Source: a virus (lineage: Duplodnaviria; Heunggongvirae; Uroviricota; Caudoviricetes). From it: 40,199 nt of DNA. Under the pieces are notes generated by a model. That model was not told where the DNA came from, searched no databases, and saw only the letters and a program-made list of their open reading frames with translations. Both the position numbers and the translations under genes were made by a program. How positions within the stretch are numbered: position 1 is the first letter of the stretch; each line of letters opens with the position of its first letter. The stretch lies in IMG/VR virus record IMGVR_UViG_2681813201_000021. One strand, written 5' to 3'. Below are positions 11,082 through 40,199 of this stretch, piece by piece.

Positions 11082-12077
11082 GTGACCGTGAGAGCACTAC
11101 TGACCCCTGAAATTGCCCCGCGTATGGGGATCGTATTGTTCAGACCAGGTTCAGAGCTGATGCCCCTGTTTATGCAGGGGCGTGTCCTGCTGGAGCCTGA
11201 GCCGGAACGTTATTCATCTTTCGCCAGTGGTGCCGTTCCGGCGGCATCACAACCGCTGGCGGATGATCCTACCGTTCGGGCCGTGTTCCGCAATGAGGCA
11301 GTGATCCGTCGTGCTGGTGGCGTGGAATGTCTTGAAAGCTGGTTACTTCGTGAAAAAGGCTGCCAGTGGCCTCATTCCGACTGGCACAGCGAGAACATGA
11401 CCACAATGCGACACGCTCCGGGTGCAATCCGTCTGTGCTGGCACTGCGATAACCAGCTGCGCGATCAGTTCACGGAACGGCTGGAATCAATGGCAACGGA
11501 TAACTGTGCCCGCTGGGTGTTGTCTGTTGTGCGTCGGGATCTCGGTTTTGATGACAGTCACGTTGTGACAATGCCGGAACTGTGCTGGTGGCTGATTCGT
11601 AATGACCTGGCGGATGCCTTACCGGAAAGTGCAGCCCGTAAGGCACTGAGATTACCGAAGCCTGTTGTGCCGTCTGTCACCCGGGAAAGTGACCTTGTGC
11701 CTTCGGTTCCTGCCACCAGCATCATCCAGGATAAGGCGAAAAAGGTGCTGGCGCTGAAAGTGGATCCGGAGTCGCCGGAGTCTTTTATGTTACGCCCAAA
11801 ACGTCGCCGCTGGGTTAATGAAAAGTACACGCGCTGGGTTAAGACACAGCCGTGTGCATGTTGTGGAAAGCCCGCTGATGATCCCCACCACCTGATAGGT
11901 TACGGTCAGGGTGGAATGGGAACAAAAGCGCATGACCTTTTTGTGTTGCCTTTGTGCAGAAAGCATCACGACGAGCTGCATGCGGATACCGTGGTATTTG
12001 AAGAAAAGTATGGCTCTCAGTTGGAGCTGATATTTCGTTTTATCGATCGTGCGCTGGCAATTGGCGTGCTGGCCTGA
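11082..12077 (+). CDS. DUF968-like phage protein with C-terminal HNH-like Cys/His motif
   Basis: 331 aa; C-terminus CACCGKPADDPHHLIGYG...CRKHHDELH; start uncertain (GTG at 11082). Confidence 0.55.
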   Translation: MTVRALLTPEIAPRMGIVLFRPGSELMPLFMQGRVLLEPEPERYSSFASGAVPAASQPLADDPTVRAVFRNEAVIRRAGGVECLESWLLREKGCQWPHSDWHSENMTTMRHAPGAIRLCWHCDNQLRDQFTERLESMATDNCARWVLSVVRRDLGFDDSHVVTMPELCWWLIRNDLADALPESAARKALRLPKPVVPSVTRESDLVPSVPATSIIQDKAKKVLALKVDPESPESFMLRPKRRRWVNEKYTRWVKTQPCACCGKPADDPHHLIGYGQGGMGTKAHDLFVLPLCRKHHDELHADTVVFEEKYGSQLELIFRFIDRALAIGVLA

Positions 12078-12095
12078 TTTTTGTGGGGTAAGTTG

Positions 12096-12440
12096 ATGCG
12101 TGATATGTATGAAGTATTGGACCGCTGGGGAGCATGGGCTGCAGCAGACAACAGTGGTGTGGACTGGCAGCCGGTAGCAGCAGGCTTCAAGGGGCTTTTA
12201 CCTCATGGCAAAAAGTCACGGATTCAGTGTGATGATGACGAAGGCATTATGATAGACAGTTGTGTGGCTCGGTTGAGAAAGTATAAACCAGAGGAATATG
12301 AGCTCATCATAGCCCACTTTGTTATTGGTATCTCATTACGCACTATTGCCAAAAGGAGAAGGTGCTCTGATGGCACTATTAGGAAGGAGTTGCAAACCGC
12401 AATCGGTTTTATAGAGGGGGTTGTAAGTATACTTGTGTAA
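12096..12440 (+). CDS. Putative late-gene regulator in Q position (C-terminal HTH, sigma-70 region-4-like)
   Basis: Last regulatory ORF before the late region; C-terminal ISLRTIAKRRRCSDGTIRKEL helix-turn-helix; start at ATG 12096. Confidence 0.4.
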   Translation: MRDMYEVLDRWGAWAAADNSGVDWQPVAAGFKGLLPHGKKSRIQCDDDEGIMIDSCVARLRKYKPEEYELIIAHFVIGISLRTIAKRRRCSDGTIRKELQTAIGFIEGVVSILV

Positions 12441-12467
12441 AATAATAAAAGGCGGTAGTACCGCCTT
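12438..12467 (-). terminator. Rho-independent terminator of the minus-strand three-gene operon (also ends the plus-strand Q-like gene)
   Basis: Stem AAGGCGG / CCGCCTT with 5-nt loop (12449-12467); on the minus strand it is followed by UUAUUAUUUUA. Confidence 0.65.
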
Positions 12468-13080
12468 AATGATCGAATCGTTGTATGTTTTCATGGAATC
12501 TACAAAAGTGAATAGATATTTTGAATAGTAAAATGTAGAAACCAACTTGACTTAAAGTTATGGCTTTGCATTTATCATTCAAGAGTTTTTGTAATTCTTC
12601 CGTTGGTAATTGGTATACATCATCAAGAAAAACGATGCATTCTTCTAAGTTGTCTGATTCAGGAAGATAAAAAATATTAGTAATTAACTGCTTCCTTATA
12701 GCATCAATTTTGCTATCTATTGAAGTCTTAGAAACTCCGTTGGAGAGAAGAATAGCTTCGAACTTAGATAAACTTACTAACGGAGCAAAGACTGCACGCA
12801 TTGGCACATCACGATTATTACTTGTATCTATATCGCAACTGTTGCTTAATATAATGCCTCGTGTTTTTTTAGTCCCTTTAATTGAATATACTGTAAGCTC
12901 CTTAAATATATCTCCCTGAAGTGCAGCATTTTTCAGATCATCATGATAATTGCTAAGGTAGTAGTTAGTGTTTTCAGGGAAATCTCTAAGTGCATTTATT
13001 AGCCCTTCTTTTTGATGAGCTGTTAAATAATATGGAATTTGATCTTTGAATTTCTCGATATCAAAAATGTTATTACTCAT
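12466..13080 (-). CDS. Hypothetical protein C of AT-rich operon (204 aa)
   Basis: ATG 13080 lies one codon after the stop of gene B in the same frame; low GC; no recognisable catalytic motif. Confidence 0.6.
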   Translation of the reverse strand: MSNNIFDIEKFKDQIPYYLTAHQKEGLINALRDFPENTNYYLSNYHDDLKNAALQGDIFKELTVYSIKGTKKTRGIILSNSCDIDTSNNRDVPMRAVFAPLVSLSKFEAILLSNGVSKTSIDSKIDAIRKQLITNIFYLPESDNLEECIVFLDDVYQLPTEELQKLLNDKCKAITLSQVGFYILLFKISIHFCRFHENIQRFDH

Positions 13081-13083
13081 CAC

Positions 13084-13428
13084 TTAATCCAAGTATAAAT
13101 CCCACAGTGAAGCATGAACGACTTTATTTATTTCACTGCCTAAAGACACCTGGTTTGTCGATAATTTTTCATAAAAGTTTGTCATCGAGACTGCAAGTCT
13201 TTGATCAACTGAGATTGTGCTCCCTGCTTTATATGTTTGTGTGATGGAATGAACTGAATCGGTAGTTGAAGACTTATACTCCAAAGCGTGATTTTTGACG
13301 ATTAAACTTTGTTGAGGACCATGCTGTTGATTTTGGGCAATGTCTGTTAATGCAGTTATATGCAGACCATATAAAACCAAAGTTAATACTTGAAGTTGAG
13401 CTCGATAAACATGATGAGACGGATACAT
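13084..13428 (-). CDS. Hypothetical protein B of AT-rich operon (114 aa)
   Basis: ATG 13428 preceded by GGTGG RBS, 15 nt after stop of gene A; no recognisable motif. Confidence 0.55.
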   Translation of the reverse strand: MYPSHHVYRAQLQVLTLVLYGLHITALTDIAQNQQHGPQQSLIVKNHALEYKSSTTDSVHSITQTYKAGSTISVDQRLAVSMTNFYEKLSTNQVSLGSEINKVVHASLWDLYLD

Positions 13429-13443
13429 ATCATACCACCATTT

Positions 13444-14193
13444 CTATTTGTAGGATGGTTCTAGTTCTTGAATTGTTGACTCTTTAAGGCAACTAAAGAA
13501 AGCTAATTTATTACAGGAGTGAAGATCATCAAGAATTTTTTTTGGTTCGTTTTTAAACTTATCTATTTCATCAGTATTAGTGATTTGCCTAATGCTGTCT
13601 ATGTCTAGGATTAGTCCTTTTTTATTAAATTCTCCATTATCTGACATGACTAAAGCATGAGATAATATTTGAATTATATTTAGAAATGCGCCTTCATTTT
13701 TATCGATTCTGATATTGATCGGATAATTAGACATAGACTCGCCAGCCATATTTAAGCTGACGTTTAGCTTATCAAATAAATTAGAATCGTCTTCTTTTGG
13801 GAAAAAATCTACATACTTTAATGAGTAGCGGATGATGTTGTCATTTAAATTTAATTTGTTAAGCTCATTTAATACATGAATGATTTTTTCTCTAAAATGA
13901 CTCCACCCTTGATATTTGGTGCTGGTGGATACAACAACACCATGGTCACTTAGTCCAATATAGTACCCTTCGATTTCGAGGCGACTGACAACTGCGTAAT
14001 GTAATTGTTCATCTCCCTCACGAACATTTTTAGGTATTTGACTGGGTGGTAAACTAATTACTGGTTTTGTACAACCTAGAGCGTGAAAAAGAAACCCTGG
14101 AACTATTTCCGATATTTGTGTTTCTTTAGAAAAACGCATTTCGAAAGCAGCTTCGATTACTGGTTGTTTTGATAGAGATGTTGGAATGAGCAT
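13444..14193 (-). CDS. Hypothetical protein A of AT-rich operon (249 aa)
   Basis: First gene of the operon; N-terminal PVIEAAFEMRF recalls an uncharacterised family (possibly TIGR04255-like; recollection, unverified). Confidence 0.6.
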   Translation of the reverse strand: MLIPTSLSKQPVIEAAFEMRFSKETQISEIVPGFLFHALGCTKPVISLPPSQIPKNVREGDEQLHYAVVSRLEIEGYYIGLSDHGVVVSTSTKYQGWSHFREKIIHVLNELNKLNLNDNIIRYSLKYVDFFPKEDDSNLFDKLNVSLNMAGESMSNYPINIRIDKNEGAFLNIIQILSHALVMSDNGEFNKKGLILDIDSIRQITNTDEIDKFKNEPKKILDDLHSCNKLAFFSCLKESTIQELEPSYK

Positions 14194-14420
14194 TTAAAAC
14201 CCATAGTATGTTTTATGAGCTGATTGGATTTTGAGCATAGCTACCGCACGAATCTTCGAGGAAGATCCAAACATGTGCCTAATGTCGCATCATGCTCAAG
14301 GCGGCATAAATTTTGTTTACTGAGTATAAGATTAACAACCATTAACTTCCATCAAAAATGCTAACGCGTACGCAAAAACTATTGTATCGTGTTAAGAGTG
14401 GTCACTTCGCCACACAGCTT

Positions 14421-14451
14421 AAACCCGCCGTCGAGCGGGTTTGTCGTTTCT
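14421..14451 (+). terminator. Hairpin terminator in late leader region (tR'-like)
   Basis: Stem AAACCCGC / GCGGGTTT, loop CGTCGA, tail GTCGTTTCT; sits between the Q-like gene region and the holin. Confidence 0.5.
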
Positions 14452-14593
14452 GGCCCCGGCTATTTGTTGAGCCTGGTCTATACCGCAGTTATCCATTGGC
14501 TCGGCCTCTTTTACGTTTCCGCTTCTGATTTGCGGTACATGATGTTCCCTCAATTTGCACCTCCTGTATTGGCGAGGTGAGAGATAACTACAA

Positions 14594-14920
14594 ATGCCTC
14601 ATAACCCAAATACCTGGCTGGAGTTGGTCCAGAGCTGGTGGCGTGGAGACACACCGCTGGGCGCAGTGATTATGTCGATTGTTATGGCTGGTTTACGTAT
14701 TGCCTATTTTGGCGGTGGTGGCGGCTGGAAGCGAAAAACACTCGAAATTCTACTCTGTGGCGCTCTGACGCTGACTTTTGCATCCGCTCTTGAGTATGTC
14801 GGATGGCCTAAATCACTATCTGTTGCCATTGGTGGTGGGGTGGGGCTGATCGGTGTCGATGCTATTCGTGGGGCTGCAATGCGAGTAATCGGTAACAAAT
14901 TTGGTGGCTCTAAGGAGTAA
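14594..14920 (+). CDS. Holin
   Basis: 108 aa with hydrophobic transmembrane segments and charged C-terminus, immediately upstream of the endolysin; RBS GAGGTGAGAG. Confidence 0.7.
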   Translation: MPHNPNTWLELVQSWWRGDTPLGAVIMSIVMAGLRIAYFGGGGGWKRKTLEILLCGALTLTFASALEYVGWPKSLSVAIGGGVGLIGVDAIRGAAMRVIGNKFGGSKE

Positions 14921-16022: not shown

Positions 16023-16343
16023 ATGAAAGACGGCATTTATTTTGTTGTGTTCAGAAGCGGTCATAATGATGTTGGCAATGGCACGGTCGTTGTGAAGGAT
16101 AATGCGGTTAATGGTGGTGATTTTGGGTTTACCTATCAGGGGCGTGTACAAGATGGGGTATTGAAACTTCATGTATCCCGCCACAACCCTTCAGCACAAA
16201 ACGTTATTGCAGGCCTTAACGATTATGTGATGGATCTCTCAGTGAGAGATATTGGGGATGGTTATTACCTTGAAGGTGGAATTGCTGGTGTTCCTGGTGC
16301 GACTCTGTCTGTACAGGCGAAATTTATCGGCAATTTGATTTAA
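16023..16343 (+). CDS. Hypothetical protein (moron after lysis cassette)
   Basis: 106 aa; RBS AAGGA; AT-rich upstream region; followed by its own terminator. Confidence 0.5.
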   Translation: MKDGIYFVVFRSGHNDVGNGTVVVKDNAVNGGDFGFTYQGRVQDGVLKLHVSRHNPSAQNVIAGLNDYVMDLSVRDIGDGYYLEGGIAGVPGATLSVQAKFIGNLI

Positions 16344-16438: not shown

Positions 16439-16789
16439 ATGCCCCCACGAACCCCAAAAGCCTGCCGTGTTCGCGGCTGCCGCCATACCACCACTGACCC
16501 GTCAGGCTATTGCGAAAGCCACAAAAGCGAAGGCTGGAAGCAATACAAACCTGGACAATCCCGTCATCAGCGCGGCTACGGTTCGAAGTGGGACAGTATC
16601 CGCGCGCGTGTCCTGAAGCGTGACAAAGGCCTGTGTCAGTTATGTCTGCGTGCCGGTGTGGTGCGTGAGGCGAAAACTGTTGACCACATCATCCCTAAAG
16701 CGCATGGCGGCACTGATGCTGACAGTAATCTGCAGAGTCTGTGCTGGCCGTGTCATAAGGCGAAGACGGCCCGTGAACGGTTAAAGTGA
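16439..16789 (+). CDS. HNH endonuclease (terminase-associated)
   Basis: 116 aa; Cys-rich N-terminus and DHIIPKAHGG...N...CWPCH HNH motif; sits upstream of terminase as in HK97-type packaging modules; RBS GAAGGAGA. Confidence 0.85.
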   Translation: MPPRTPKACRVRGCRHTTTDPSGYCESHKSEGWKQYKPGQSRHQRGYGSKWDSIRARVLKRDKGLCQLCLRAGVVREAKTVDHIIPKAHGGTDADSNLQSLCWPCHKAKTARERLK

Positions 16790-34398: not shown

Positions 34399-34582
34399 TC
34401 CTGTTACTTTGACTGAAGTAATCCCCGGTCTTCATGACGTGACCGGGGCTGTTGAATTACCAGAAGATAACTGGTTTTTTACTGCATCTGAAATCCCTGA
34501 AGGAATGGAAATATCTGTTAACGAGAAGGGAGAACCCATTCTGATTGAGATTAAACCGTCTCAGGAGGAACTGGCCAGATGA
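34385..34582 (+). CDS. Tail fibre assembly protein (short; GTG start)
   Basis: GGAGGG RBS 8 nt before GTG 34385; N-terminal RLFNPVTL typical of Tfa proteins. Confidence 0.5.
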
Positions 34583-35156
34583 CATCTGGCGCGGTGCTGG
34601 TATCTGTTGCCATCACCGCGTCAGTGTAATCCAGCACGGCGTTAAGTCGGGTGTTTTCTGCCTGCGTCAGCTTCCGCCCGGCCTGCAATTTCAGTTGAAT
34701 CAGACTAATGGAAACCATTGCAGCATCAATCAGCGACTGCCGCTGTGTTTCTGCCATGTCTACTGCTGCTCTATGCTGTGCCTCGGTATCCGTCACCCAT
34801 TTCTCACCATCCCATTTATCGTATGGCGTTAACGGGGCGATAGTGGTTGTCTTTTCAGGGTAATCACCCGGAGCTGTGATTTCTTTTGATTCTCCTGTTT
34901 CGGTGCTATAGACGATTTCACCGCGATGGTCTGGCACATATTCCCATGAGTTAAAATCTGCAGAACGGCAAATTGCATAACCAGCTTTATATGAGCCAGG
35001 AGCATCTAAACAGGAACATGCCGGGATACCGACACCCACAGCAAGATATTCAGTTGATGTGGAAATATATTCCCGCGTTTCACCATCATAATTATAAATG
35101 GTAATGTCTCCCGCTTTTATGGCAATGAGTTCGTTATTTAATACGGCTTTATTCAT
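34551..35156 (-). CDS. Tail fibre assembly protein (alternative, in inverted orientation)
   Basis: 201 aa; C-terminal ...[16 protein letters not shown] Tfa signature; convergent with plus-strand tfa. Confidence 0.8.
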   Translation of the reverse strand: MNKAVLNNELIAIKAGDITIYNYDGETREYISTSTEYLAVGVGIPACSCLDAPGSYKAGYAICRSADFNSWEYVPDHRGEIVYSTETGESKEITAPGDYPEKTTTIAPLTPYDKWDGEKWVTDTEAQHRAAVDMAETQRQSLIDAAMVSISLIQLKLQAGRKLTQAENTRLNAVLDYTDAVMATDTSTAPDVIWPVPPETV

Positions 35157-35661
35157 CAGGCAGCCCTCACGATATAATTAAAGGCAATGTTACGAGGTCT
35201 GTTTTCTGTCGCTGTAGGAACAACTCTTGAGACATCCAAATTAGCGTAAATATGACGATCTGTTATAGAAACTGATGACTTACCTGTAGATTCAGCTTTT
35301 ATCACAACGGAATCATACATTCCCTCATCATTCCCAAAAAATGCACCAGAGCCATTGCCAAAAAAATACAGTGCTGATATTTCATGCCTTGCACCAATTG
35401 TCCCCGTGATATTTCTGATTGCATCTCCCTGAGAGTTCAATATAGTTCGGCCCGAATCAACCCCACGCCCGTCATCCCAGCCGCGAATAAATTCACCGCG
35501 TAAATCAGGCAATTTATTTGTCGGGTAAGCCTTTGCCAGTTCCGGGTATTCTTCAGCAGAAAAAGCCGCACCATTGCATTTCAGCCAGCCTGTCGGCGGA
35601 GTGGCGGAAGGCCACGGAACAGGCACACCGACAGGTAATGCAGAGCCTTCTCCCAAACCAA
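35156..35661 (-). CDS. Alternative tail-fibre variable C-terminal segment (no own start; expressed only after inversion)
   Basis: Reads from crossover site: ...VGLGEGSALPVGVPVPWPS...GWLKCNGAAFSAEEYPELAKAYP...NIAFNYIVRAA, typical fibre C-terminal domain; stop overlaps tfa' start (ATGA). Confidence 0.7.
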
Positions 35662-35673
35662 CGTTTATGAAAA
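35648..35673. other. Invertase crossover site (right), minus strand reads TTTTCATAAACG TT GGTTTGGGAGAA
   Basis: Matches hixL at about 20 of 26 positions as recalled from memory; shares 15 identical bp with the left site in inverted orientation. Confidence 0.75.
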
Positions 35674-35727
35674 TGAAGAAATAACAAGCAAATGGCATCA
35701 TTCCTGCTTTTACCAGGGGGATTTAAC

Positions 35728-36282
35728 ATGCTTATTGGCTATGTACGTGTATCAACAAATGACCAGAATACCGATCTACAACGCAATGCGCTGAACTGTG
35801 CAGGGTGTGAGCTGATTTTTGAAGACAAGATAAGCGGTACAAAGTCCGACAGACCAGGACTGAAAAAGCTGCTCAGGACATTATCGGCAGGTGACACGCT
35901 GGTGGTCTGGAAACTGGACCGACTGGGGCGCAGTATGCGGCATCTTGTCGTGCTGGTGGAGGAGTTGCGCGAACGAGGCATCAACTTTCGTAGTCTGACG
36001 GATTCAATTGATACCAGTACCCCAATGGGGCGCTTTTTCTTTCATGTGATGGGTGCCCTGGCTGAAATGGAGCGTGAACTGATTGTTGAACGAACAAAAG
36101 CTGGACTAGAAGCAGCTCGCGCACAGGGACGAATTGGTGGACGTCGCCCCAAACTTACACCAGAACAATGGGAGCAGGCCGGACGATTAATTGCATCAGG
36201 CGTTCCTCGCCAGAAGGTGGCGATCATCTATGATGTTGGTATATCGACACTGTATAAGAAGTTTCCGGTCGGAGATAAATGA
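35728..36282 (+). CDS. pin: Serine DNA invertase (Pin/Gin/Hin/Cin family)
   Basis: MLIGYVRVSTNDQNTDLQRNAL... with catalytic Ser in the YVRVST motif; close to e14 Pin as recalled; C-terminal HTH. Confidence 0.9.
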   Translation: MLIGYVRVSTNDQNTDLQRNALNCAGCELIFEDKISGTKSDRPGLKKLLRTLSAGDTLVVWKLDRLGRSMRHLVVLVEELRERGINFRSLTDSIDTSTPMGRFFFHVMGALAEMERELIVERTKAGLEAARAQGRIGGRRPKLTPEQWEQAGRLIASGVPRQKVAIIYDVGISTLYKKFPVGDK

Positions 36283-36342: not shown

Positions 36343-37161
<819 letters not shown>

Positions 37162-37522
37162 TCATTGCAAGGGCTCACAACCAGTAGTGTTGAGAAAACC
37201 ATCGGAGAAATGAGGCTAAGCCTTTGAATTTACATAGTACAAAAAAGATACTTTTCCTCATAATGTGAGCTAATTTTATGTTTCGTTTGATGATTGGACC
37301 GGTCTCGAAAACCGTAGACACATAGTATGCGTTAATTTATGAACAAACTACTTGTCTGCTGTTTTTCTGTCATTAGTCGTATATAGAATGATTCTCTATG
37401 CCTAACAAAGCATCACCAGTGCTAGATTACGTTGTAGTCACTGTTTAAATATCCAGATAAAACATTTCCTTCTGGGTTGAATGAGTGATAAAGTTTCACC
37501 CATTAGACCCCTTGGAGGAATT

Positions 37523-38956
37523 ATGTCTGAATTTGAAGTGTTGGCACAGCATCTGCTGAAGGAAGCCGAGGCGGAAGAAAAGCTGCGACAGGAAAATGAT
37601 AAAAAGCTTATCGAGAAAGTGCTGGAAATCTATGATCAGAAGTATGTGGCTGAATTACTGAGAAAAGTCGGAAAAAATGAGTGGAGCCGTGAAACCATTA
37701 ACCGCTGGATTAATGGCAAGTGTTTACCAAAATCGTTGACTTCAGTAGAAGAGTCTCTTCTGCGTAAGATGCTACCAGAACCACCTGCAAACCATCCGGA
37801 ATATGCTTTCCGCTTCATTGACTTATTTGCTGGAATTGGAGGGATACGGAAAGGTTTTGAGGCCATTGGAGGCCAGTGTGTTTTTACCAGTGAATGGAAT
37901 AAAGATGCTGTGCGTACATACAAGGCCAACTGGTTTAACGATGAACAGGTGCATAAATTCAATCTCGATATTCGGGAAGTCACGCTGAGTGATAAAACCG
38001 ATGTATTGGAAACGGATGCTTATGCATATATTGATGAGCATGTGCCGGATCATGATGTGCTTCTTGCGGGGTTTCCGTGCCAGCCATTTAGCCTTGCTGG
38101 TGTTAGTAAGAAAAACTCACTTGGTCGTGCGCATGGTTTTGAATGTGAAGCACAAGGAACACTTTTTTTTGACGTGGCACGTATTATACGAGCAAAAAAA
38201 CCGGCAATTTTTGTGCTGGAAAATGTCAAAAATCTGAAGAGCCATGATAAGGGTAAAACTTTCAAAGTCATTATGGAGACCCTTGACGAGCTGGGCTACG
38301 AAGTTGCCGATGCTGCAGAAATGGGAAAAAACGATCCAAAGATTATCGATGGGAAGCATTTTTTGCCTCAGCATCGTGAACGCATTGTTCTGGTCGGATT
38401 TAGACGAGATCTGAATATTCACAAGGGGTTTACCTTGCGTGATATCAGTCGTTTTTATCCGGAACACCGCCCATCATTTGGTGAATTGCTGGAGCCTGTA
38501 GTCGACAGTAAATATATACTTACGCCAAAACTATGGGAGTACCTTTATAACTACGCCAAAAAGCATGCAGCCAAGGGGAATGGTTTTGGCTTTGGGTTGG
38601 TCAATCCTGAGAATAAGGAAAGCATTGCACGCACACTTTCTGCCAGATATCACAAAGACGGATCAGAAATTCTTATTGATCGTGGTTGGGATATGGCAAC
38701 GGGAGAGGCTGACTTTATGAATGAGAGTAATCAGGCTCGTCGACCACGCAGGCTGACTCCCCGAGAGTGCGCACGCCTTATGGGATTTGAAAAACCTGGA
38801 GGGAAACCATTCCGTATTCCGGTTTCAGATACTCAGTCATATCGGCAGTTCGGTAACTCAGTTGTGGTGCCAGTATTTGAAGCTGTTGCCAGACTTCTGG
38901 AACCCTATATCCTCAAAGCTGTTTCTGCTGATGCTGGTAAGACTGGGCAGCCTTGA
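37523..38956 (+). CDS. ecoRIIM: DNA cytosine-5 methyltransferase, M.EcoRII-like (CCWGG family)
   Basis: Motifs [10 protein letters not shown] (I), GFPCQPFS (IV), ENVKNL (VI); sequence closely follows M.EcoRII/Dcm as recalled; RBS GGAGG before ATG 37523. Confidence 0.9.
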
Positions 38957-38962
38957 GAACAT

Positions 38963-38985
38963 CTCCCGGCCTTTTAAGCCGGGAG
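38963..38985. terminator. Bidirectional hairpin between convergent M and R genes
   Basis: CTCCCGGC cttttaa GCCGGGAG. Confidence 0.6.
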
Positions 38986-38990
38986 TCAGC

Positions 38991-40199
38991 CTATGATAGT
39001 TCAGCGTAAAGCTCTATCAGCTCAGTAATGAATGCTCCGAGCGTTATTAATTCTTCTCTAACTGCTTCTGGGTATTTTTTATGTAAAGTTGATGGTACAA
39101 CGAGTCTGACACCAGCATCTTTCATTTCTCGGTATTGTGCTGAAGAAACACCTTCTTGCAGTGTAAATAAATGTACCTGATGGATTTTATCTGCTTCATT
39201 CAGTATCTGACGCCAGCGATCTTTGCAGGTGGTCTTTACTGCCAGCATACGTAAGTTTTCTACAGGAAATTCAACGTTATGATATGCCTCTGCTGAAGGA
39301 AACAGGAAATCTGGTTTTTTATTACCTTCAGTAACTGCCTGAGTGGAGAAATGCCGTAGTCCGTGCTCGATAAAAAGCTTCTCTAGGTGAAGTTCAAGTG
39401 ATTTGCCTGCCCTTGATTTACGTCGATTACTGACAGAGTTGGCTAATGCAATAAACTCATCTACAGAATCGAATCCTTTCTTAATAATATCAAGAACATG
39501 TAATTCCTCGACGAGTAGAAAAATATCATACTCGACACGCCGACGGTCAATCAGTTGCTCATCTGGATCCTTGGAGTTTTTAGCATAATGGCCAGCAGCA
39601 TATTGAATAATTTCGTTTCCAGAAGGAAAACGCTTCTTCCAGTCTTCAGGAATAACATATTTATGATTTACTGGAGTTTGCTGAAGAGACAATCCGCCCA
39701 AAATTTGTCCGGCAGGGCCGGAAATTAGGGTTCCAGGTATGATTTCGCCAATAGCAGACTCGATGATATCCTCTTCATCGGGATTGACGCAGACCCATAT
39801 ATCTACCTCGGAACAGTCAGTGTTCTGTTCGTTTAACCTGAAAGCAAGAATTGTGAGGGCTCCTGTATTTTCAGGGTTCTGTAATGGACTTCCTCTCCCC
39901 CAGCGCGTAATTCTTTTTTCGTTTCGGGTCTTACCAAAATAACGGTTGTTGTAATAAATTGCGCGTGCTTGGGTATCAGGGCAATCATGGGATGATACAT
40001 GCGCAGTAAGGAAGACTGAAGGGTTCAGTTCGCGAGTATGATTGATAGATGGAAAAAGCTTTTCAACGATATTTGAGGGGATATAAAGTCCGACCTGATG
40101 GCCACCTGTTGCGCCTGTGTCGTTTGCAGAAAGGCGTTTGATGTAGATAAAGTAATTCCCGCTTGCGATATCAAGCAGCCAGTTATGAAAAACCGACAT
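38991..40199 (-). CDS. ecoRIIR: Type IIE restriction endonuclease, EcoRII-like
   Basis: 402 aa; N-terminus MSVFHNWLL...YIKRLSANDTGATGGHQVGLYIP and most of the length follow R.EcoRII as recalled; start codon is the last 3 nt of the window. Confidence 0.9.
   Translation of the reverse strand: MSVFHNWLLDIASGNYFIYIKRLSANDTGATGGHQVGLYIPSNIVEKLFPSINHTRELNPSVFLTAHVSSHDCPDTQARAIYYNNRYFGKTRNEKRITRWGRGSPLQNPENTGALTILAFRLNEQNTDCSEVDIWVCVNPDEEDIIESAIGEIIPGTLISGPAGQILGGLSLQQTPVNHKYVIPEDWKKRFPSGNEIIQYAAGHYAKNSKDPDEQLIDRRRVEYDIFLLVEELHVLDIIKKGFDSVDEFIALANSVSNRRKSRAGKSLELHLEKLFIEHGLRHFSTQAVTEGNKKPDFLFPSAEAYHNVEFPVENLRMLAVKTTCKDRWRQILNEADKIHQVHLFTLQEGVSSAQYREMKDAGVRLVVPSTLHKKYPEAVREELITLGAFITELIELYAELS

Follow-up and report, generated by a model that had tools for sequence, protein, structure and literature searches.

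Organization of the Locus

The window analyzed here is the whole 40,199-nucleotide stretch of the IMG/VR virus record IMGVR_UViG_2681813201_000021 (Caudoviricetes), an SfII-like Escherichia coli prophage. Three small genes, designated A, B, and C, lie on its minus strand, in antisense orientation between the gene for the Q antiterminator and the late promoter. They form a conserved, horizontally mobile, self-contained accessory unit in which A belongs to the TIGR04255 family, C has a predicted MazF/CcdB-type fold, and B looks like an antitoxin or adaptor. With moderate confidence we read this triad as a three-component toxin-antitoxin-like abortive-infection or phage-defense module, a reading whose defense component rests on genomic context and on the fold of C. 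The features of the locus and of the regions that flank it are as follows.

13444–14193, minus: gene A, 249 residues (open reading frame (ORF) list)
13429–13443, minus: A-B spacer of 15 nucleotides with a GGTGG ribosome-binding site (direct reading)
13084–13428, minus: gene B, 114 residues (ORF list)
12466–13080, minus: gene C, 204 residues from the ATG (ORF list)
12439–12467, minus: plausible intrinsic terminator for the operon, with a T-run after a G+C-rich stem of 8 bp (terminator scan and sequence)
14194–14331, minus: putative leader and promoter of the operon, pointing away from the late promoter on the plus strand (Klebsiella alignment)
12081–12440, plus: Q-family antiterminator (ORF list)
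about 14332–14452, plus: putative late-promoter block, a promoter-like TTAACA-16 nt-AAAAAT and then a strongly conserved stretch (sequence and conservation)

An earlier reading of this DNA from its letters and ORF translations (the original prediction) had described three minus-strand ORFs of 249, 114, and 204 residues, and these coordinates and sizes match the ORF list. The tight linkage that it reported is also seen: the TAG stop codon of A is separated from the ATG of B by the 15-nucleotide spacer aaatGGTGGtatgat that carries the GGTGG site, and the TAA of B is followed by an in-frame GTG codon and then by the ATG of C. Initiation at this GTG, one codon before the ATG, would give an alternative C protein of 205 residues. 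A terminator belonging to the operon, with a T-run, had likewise been predicted and is found both by the terminator scan and in the sequence, as the hairpin AAGGCGGTA-CTA-CCGCCTT at 12467–12449, with arms AAGGCGGTA/TACCGCCTT, followed by TTATTATTTT; the hairpin and T-run (12467–12439) together make a plausible intrinsic terminator. The sharp drop in G+C content is real, with values of 0.30–0.38 over 12450–14400 and 0.50–0.58 on either side. The triad has 33.3% G+C as compared with 51.3% for the remaining window, and it is the G+C minimum of the entire 40 kb.

The region at 14194–14400 had been taken as non-coding DNA upstream of the operon. This holds for the part next to A, but from about 14332 onward the DNA is shared with the plus-strand late promoter/terminator block. 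A 36-nucleotide block upstream of A (14230–14265, minus) is identical at 30 of 34 positions to its counterpart in a related Klebsiella locus, whereas the adjoining DNA cannot be aligned and the encoded proteins share only about 65% identity. The block may serve as an operator or belong to a 5′ leader. A consensus scan for a minus-strand σ70 promoter upstream of A gave no convincing candidate, and none fits the 14230–14265 block well. The plus-strand block at about 14332–14452 contains a terminator-like hairpin (14420–14443) and is common to SfII, the Klebsiella prophage, phage 434, other lambdoid phages, and more than 2,000 E. coli genome records; the analogy with lambdoid architecture suggests a late promoter dependent on Q, followed by its first terminator. 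The lysis genes (holin, lysozyme, and spanin) begin at 14594 on the plus strand. Neither Rfam families nor tRNAs were found in the whole window, and a search of 12000–14700 for direct or tandem repeat families found none, the sole tandem match being a trivial one with a 10-nucleotide unit and 2.1 copies.

Conservation and Mobility of the Triad

The triad was surveyed with one genome per species, giving 80 loci from at least seven phyla, and hidden Markov models (HMMs) built from the first examples were applied to 85 loci. The taxa that carry it include Alpha-, Beta-, and Gammaproteobacteria, Desulfobacterota, Cyanobacteria, Bacteroidota, Acidobacteriota, Gemmatimonadota, and Myxococcota. Gene A was found in 84 of the 85 loci, the exception being a truncated contig of 1.7 kb. 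For B, a word-index homology search returned a single match; the HMM located it in 78 loci on the first pass and, after iteration, a B-like ORF was present between A and C in all 85. All three genes are always on the same strand in the order A-B-C, the median gaps being –8 and +8 nucleotides and the typical sizes about 250, 112, and 205 residues; in Allochromatium, Symbiobacter, and a metagenome-assembled genome (MAG) of a magnetotactic member of the Desulfobacterota, for instance, genes for proteins of 249 and then 114–118 residues precede the C homologue. Conservation of this arrangement of three genes in different phyla shows that the triad is no chance cluster of ORFs.

In 70 of 71 loci the G+C content of the triad is below that of the flanking DNA, the median difference being 12.4 points. 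A comparison of 150 flanking ORFs with Pfam and PADLOC revealed no conserved fourth gene; the commonest Pfam family among these neighbors is phage integrase, and restriction-modification, AbiL, HipA, and MADS genes are scattered among them. At an identity of at least 99%, the operon of the window is present in 92 of 5,426 complete E. coli genomes (about 1.7%), and C homologues are encoded by 2 of the 72,556 plasmid records in PLSDB.

Phage Cargo Slots

The original prediction of a foreign, self-contained operon in a cargo slot between Q and the lysis genes is supported. Other phages have different antisense genes in this position. In Shigella phage SfII, the slot between Q and the late promoter is occupied by a two-gene antisense unit, SfII_49/SfII_50 (1843–3457 of the SfII locus, minus strand), for which PADLOC gives matches to PDC-M53B (E = 2.8e-54) and PDC-M53A (E = 2.1e-32), the two components of a complete candidate system, and PhiR40_1 and mEp460, with the same Q module, have still other antisense ORFs there. 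The slot is thus a variable cargo site. A 65%-identical version of the triad occupies the same Q-holin slot in lambda-like prophages of Klebsiella pneumoniae and is represented in the assembly collection by over 1,200 indexed blocks.

C is encoded by 49 IMG/VR contigs. Viral contigs were also scanned with a profile of A, and the 98 viral loci in all comprise four groups: (i) 77 have A, B, and C; (ii) five have A and C with an unassigned spacer of about 300 nucleotides; (iii) 14 have A only; and (iv) two are truncated. The cargo slots that the triad occupies belong to unrelated temperate phages. In Pseudomonas phage Dobby (Peduoviridae), the triad is at the start of the circular record and adjoins a P2-type portal gene. 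The defense hotspot of P2 is flanked by primase GpA and by portal GpQ (PMC13586616), and the comparison of Dobby with this hotspot rests on the portal side of the triad. In Pseudomonas phage VW-6S the triad is directly downstream of cI, on the same strand and ahead of int. A Trinickia locus has it between an integrase-bearing inovirus and a P4-like element, and in Symbiobacter it lies among reverse transcriptase, toxin-antitoxin, and Wadjet genes.

The 14 IMG/VR loci with A only (L165, L166, L179, and L182–L192) encode a strong homologue of A (E about 1e-70) followed by genes that are neither B nor C: typically a protein of 174–230 residues with or without one of 150–166 residues and, in one locus, proteins of 117 and 145 residues. 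The next gene typically overlaps the stop codon of A by 8 nucleotides, as B does in many triads. Several of these loci adjoin a portal gene of the P2 type with 59% identity to its Dobby counterpart, and there is a weak match between the C terminus of the partner protein and the candidate PDC-M32A. They are apparently sister cassettes that share just the A module, and the pairing of A with varied downstream genes is compatible with a sensor or regulator that is conserved while its effectors are exchanged.

Properties of the Three Proteins

Neither A, B, nor C matched an ordinary phage structural or lysis function. The three proteins gave no match in Pfam and, at E values up to 1, zero PADLOC families (PADLOC-DB v2.0.0, 2023); in a PHROGs scan, A matches PHROG 5464, of unknown function, and the triad as a whole gave only families of unknown function. 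The original prediction had treated the proteins as lacking recognizable features. That view has to be revised for C, which has a MazF/Kid/CcdB fold, and for B, which is acidic and antitoxin- or adaptor-like; and what had been described as a faint resemblance of the N terminus of A to an uncharacterized family is a match over the full length of the protein.

Protein C is the most conserved of the three and has homologues in 466 clusters. Its AlphaFold2 (AF2) model, with a predicted local distance difference test score (pLDDT) of 84.7, comprises a core with the MazF/Kid/CcdB fold at about residues 55–193 and a helical extension at the N terminus. The core is an SH3-like β-barrel with MazF topology, and the barrel is continuous. 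As modeled, C is in the MazF/CcdB fold class but outside its sequence families; a search of PDB sequences with a profile of 54 C homologues retrieved no MazF or CcdB chain, and the single-protein search likewise gave nothing meaningful. The invariant residues include Gln55, Gly56, and Asp57 in β1, Asn80, Cys82, Asp83, Asn88, and Arg90 in the β2-β3 loop, and Ser189, His191, Phe192, Cys193, and Arg194 at the end of the last helix, where His196 and Glu197 are nearly invariant. Corresponding motifs are LQGD, LSNSCD...N.R, and the C-terminal S-x-HFCR-(F)HE, together with an invariant IPYYLT-type motif in the N-terminal extension. A zinc site formed by Cys82, His191, Cys193, and His196 is possible, although this is speculation. 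On the strength of the modeled fold, C is proposed to be a toxic effector.

Protein B comprises a short hydrophobic N-terminal stretch, a variable linker, and a conserved acidic and aromatic region of about 40 residues at the C terminus; at the N terminus, conservation is limited to about 25 residues. The C-terminal region contains the motif FY..L...QEPLG.EFE.vL..NLWDLYES, and the last 40 residues have a net charge of –6. The best 19-residue Kyte-Doolittle window of the N terminus has a median value of 1.53, borderline for a membrane helix, and exceeds the threshold in 33% of sequences. Neither B as a single protein nor a profile of 75 sequences found a match in Pfam or the PDB. From its sequence characteristics, B looks like an antitoxin or an adaptor. 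It is the fastest evolving member of the triad, with a median identity of 21.5% to the window protein as compared with 32% for A and about 44–50% for C. This order of rates, together with the acidic tail of B and its position upstream of, and coupled to, C, resembles the pattern typical of toxin-antitoxin pairs.

Protein A matches the NCBIfam model TIGR04255 with 96.2 bits (curated cutoff 30; E = 2.6e-27), and residues 7–244 align with positions 2–251 of the 252 in the profile. By this measure it is a bona fide, full-length member of the family, and the identical RefSeq protein, WP_000907077.1, is annotated as a TIGR04255 family protein. The family comprises 2,036 clusters at 50% identity, every one of them a stand-alone protein of about 250 residues. 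The AF2 model of A (pLDDT 89.9) is a duplicated α+β sandwich similar to TATA-binding protein (TBP) and S-adenosylmethionine decarboxylase (AdoMetDC). The top Foldseek match is AdoMetDC (E = 2e-4; TM-score about 0.3), and there is no close solved relative; PDB sequence searches with A alone or with a profile of 70 sequences gave nothing meaningful. Glu18, Arg20, Arg58, Asp83, Tyr94, Trp97, Arg122, Ser124, Lys126, Tyr127, Asp199, and Lys229 are retained in at least 90% of the 70 sequences. The polar members of this set (Glu18, Arg20, Arg58, Asp83, Arg122, Ser124, Lys126, Asp199, and Lys229) suggest a ligand-binding or catalytic site, and A is proposed to be a sensor or regulator and possibly an enzyme. 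In the portion of the DefensePredictor supplements available to us, an adjacent "TIGR04255 family protein" has a mean SHAP value of +1.62 in Table S3 (n = 9), where AAA ATPases have a similar value, 1.43; the sequences of A, B, and C are absent from that material, in which TIGR04255 appears solely as a neighbor feature.

Comparison with Known Systems

The triad is similar to MazEF, Kis-Kid (PemIK), and CcdAB in having a small, acidic, fast-evolving protein coupled to, and directly upstream of, the toxin-like one. It differs from them in that C is twice the size of these toxins, with an N-terminal extension, invariant motifs of its own, and no match to PF02452 or PF01845; in that no AbrB or ribbon-helix-helix domain was detected in B; and in that a third gene is obligatory and the unit is rare on plasmids. 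Tripartite toxin-antitoxin systems (toxin-antitoxin-chaperone, omega-epsilon-zeta, pasABC, and MqsRAC) also consist of three small co-transcribed genes with toxin-like, labile, and accessory members. In the triad, however, the accessory gene A is first, its product is not SecB-like and has no helix-turn-helix, and A also occurs with unrelated downstream genes. A toxin-antitoxin-chaperone system, with its SecB-like third component, was not retained as an identification. Type III toxin-antitoxin systems (ToxIN, AbiQ, and CptIN) have an antitoxin of tandem-repeat RNA, whereas the upstream partners in the triad are proteins; the lack of direct or tandem repeats in 12000–14700 led to the rejection of this class.

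Type II Gabija, a defense system of E. coli consisting of the UvrD-like helicase GajB and GajC, shares with the triad a MazF-like fold in the presumed effector (PMC13069673). It was ruled out because there is no helicase in or beside the operon and because the barrel of C is continuous, whereas the MazF-like domain of GajC is split by a five-helix insertion; the partner proteins differ as well. PDC-M53 (SfII_50/SfII_49) occupies the identical antisense slot in the sister phage SfII, but its two genes encode unrelated proteins, and A, B, and C match no PDC model. The systems of P4 hotspots named Crouga, Bandua, Aernus, Toga, Reve, and Hailong (PMC13586616) have no resemblance to the triad. In the literature searched, no main text mentions TIGR04255, the three RefSeq accessions, or the triad; Brenes & Laub 2025 (Cell Host Microbe) could hold a prior description. 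What was already known is the TIGR04255 membership of A and the MazF/CcdB-type fold as such, and what appears to be new is the set of obligatory partners around a protein of this fold.

Proposed Mechanism and Alternative Explanations

MazF and Kid cleave RNA, CcdB poisons an essential enzyme, and the tails of their antitoxins, MazE, Kis, and CcdA, fill the groove of the toxin. By analogy, the module would be carried by the prophage as cargo that is expressed in the lysogen, and C, once released, would arrest the cell by cleaving RNA in the manner of MazF and Kid or by poisoning an essential enzyme in the manner of CcdB. B would be a labile acidic neutralizer or adaptor, with its conserved C-terminal acidic and aromatic helices filling the substrate groove of C, as the antitoxin tails do, and with its hydrophobic N-terminal stretch anchoring it to A or to the membrane. 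A would couple an infection cue to the loss of inhibition by B, perhaps through a ligand-binding or catalytic site on the face of its β-sheet. During lytic growth of the prophage itself, N-antiterminated early transcription, which proceeds rightward, would run against the operon and, speculatively, could silence it on induction. There are precedents for parts of this scheme: in type II Gabija the MazF-like domain is required for immunity and is a proposed nuclease effector (PMC13069673), and six of eight loci of unknown function tested from P4-satellite defense hotspots gave protection against phages (PMC13586616).

Several observations weigh against a toxin-antitoxin-like defense module. A comparison of C with Pfam, including PemK_toxin (PF02452) and CcdB (PF01845), gave nothing at E values up to 1, and alignment of the C profile by hhalign with a genuine PemK toxin (from locus L002) gave a probability of 0.1%. 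We take the catalytic pair of MazF to be Arg25 and Thr48 in the numbering of the Bacillus subtilis enzyme. By informal pattern matching to the sequence of that enzyme, the position equivalent to the Arg (74) is occupied in C homologues by Lys, Arg, Thr, Leu, or Gln and that equivalent to the Thr (103) is variable, and the pair thus appears, from a matching of sequences and not of structures, not to be conserved in the C family. If this loss holds, C may have an activity that differs from that of MazF, or none. In B, no DNA-binding domain was detected in the Pfam and PDB profile searches, unlike the situation in classical type II antitoxins, and its N-terminal stretch could be read as a membrane anchor, as a signal-like segment, or as a docking strand. 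An alphaproteobacterial MAG has a single ORF of 315 residues that fuses B and C (locus L040, 7668–8615). Its value as Rosetta-stone evidence for an interaction between the two proteins was downgraded: the B motif is cut short immediately ahead of the junction, and the sequence comes from a MAG. A frameshift or assembly error, probably an indel artifact, is for these reasons more likely than a natural fusion. At chromosomal loci, the immediate neighbors are often housekeeping genes; defense genes also occur among them.

These findings leave room for other explanations. The triad might be a tripartite toxin-antitoxin module of the addiction or stress type, comparable with omega-epsilon-zeta, pasABC, and toxin-antitoxin-chaperone systems, that mainly stabilizes the prophage or island or induces dormancy and gives no defense against other phages; in it, C would act as toxin and B as antitoxin, with A either stabilizing B or serving as an accessory regulator. 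The MazF/CcdB fold of C, the small coupled genes with a fast-evolving acidic B upstream, the integrases and other toxin-antitoxin genes that are often nearby, and the mobility and AT-richness of the unit are all consistent with this explanation. Classical addiction modules of this fold (ccdAB and kis-kid/pemIK) are plasmid-borne, however, whereas the triad is nearly absent from plasmids and is found repeatedly in phage slots that are known or candidate defense hotspots, and we consider a purely addictive role somewhat unlikely. The two roles are in any case compatible; many toxin-antitoxin modules also defend. The C barrel could instead be only a binding scaffold in a non-toxic accessory module, such as a regulator of host or phage expression, an envelope superinfection exclusion system that acts through membrane-anchored B, or a counter-defense system that protects the prophage. 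The apparent loss of the canonical MazF catalytic residues in the informal matching, the lack of a sequence link from C to PemK or CcdB, the hydrophobicity of the B N terminus, which is borderline and passes the membrane-helix threshold in a third of the sequences, and the position beside cI in VW-6S, which also suits exclusion genes, are in its favor. Nevertheless, C is the most conserved of the three proteins, with about 30 invariant residues in the β2-β3 loop and the C-terminal tail that suggest an active or metal site, and the many non-phage chromosomal locations across phyla would be odd for a phage-specific counter-defense system; a scaffold role seems to us distinctly unlikely.

A last possibility is that the ORFs are functionless, having arisen by chance or decayed within an AT-rich spacer; only the absence of Pfam annotation favors it. 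This possibility is excluded by the conservation data, because all three proteins are conserved in the same order in at least seven phyla and the operon is at least 99% identical in the 92 E. coli genomes; the confident AF2 models (pLDDT of 85 for C and 90 for A) also argue against it. A toxin-antitoxin-like abortive-infection or phage-defense module remains the reading that we prefer. As a broader and more tentative possibility, TIGR04255 proteins may define an unrecognized modular family of phage-defense systems in which a conserved, stand-alone TBP-like sensor, possibly an enzyme, is linked by a small adaptor to interchangeable effectors. C would be one such effector, with at least two other sets of downstream genes beside the P2-like portal gene, and the family would extend over about 2,000 clusters (50% identity) in many phyla and in the cargo hotspots of lambdoid and P2-like phages.

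Other Possible Cargo Genes in the Prophage and Its Relatives

The right end of the window (36343–40199) looks like a second cargo locus with a restriction-modification system, as read from the translations. It comprises a GIY-YIG-like ORF (36343–37116, minus), a Dcm-like cytosine-5 methyltransferase with GFPCQPFS and ENV motifs (37481–38956), and an EcoRII-like restriction endonuclease (38991–40199, minus) that reaches the edge of the window. Next to this region, a Gin/Hin-type serine DNA invertase (35692–36282) lies beside tail-fiber-like ORFs on the opposite strand (34551–35701, minus), an arrangement that suggests an invertible host-range segment at 34551–36282. Just past the lysis genes, a small ORF in an AT-richer patch (16023–16343, plus) encodes a protein assigned in RefSeq to the GrlR family of regulatory proteins and is probably another moron; it is followed by a gene for an HNH endonuclease (16439–16789), ahead of the terminase genes. 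Two of the Klebsiella prophages with the triad variant (L139 and L141) have, on the opposite strand in the early region (12737–14524), a gene for a 595-residue DUF7380/EMARD_N protein that may be another cargo gene; in a third (L142) this gene is interrupted by an insertion sequence element.

Implications

If the preferred reading is correct, the triad would be a broadly distributed, prophage-borne defense or toxin module for which the sole family assignment is that of A to the uncharacterized TIGR04255 family, and it would provide the first function for that family, with its roughly 2,000 clusters (50% identity). The triad would also represent a new form of control of a MazF/CcdB-fold effector, by an obligatory third protein and an antitoxin-like partner that has no DNA-binding domain. 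In SfII-type and lambdoid prophages, the slot from Q to the late promoter would gain support as a defense hotspot comparable with those of P2 and P4. Since the operon is carried by about 1.7% of the complete E. coli genomes and a 65%-identical version is widespread in K. pneumoniae, the module could affect the host range of therapeutic phages.

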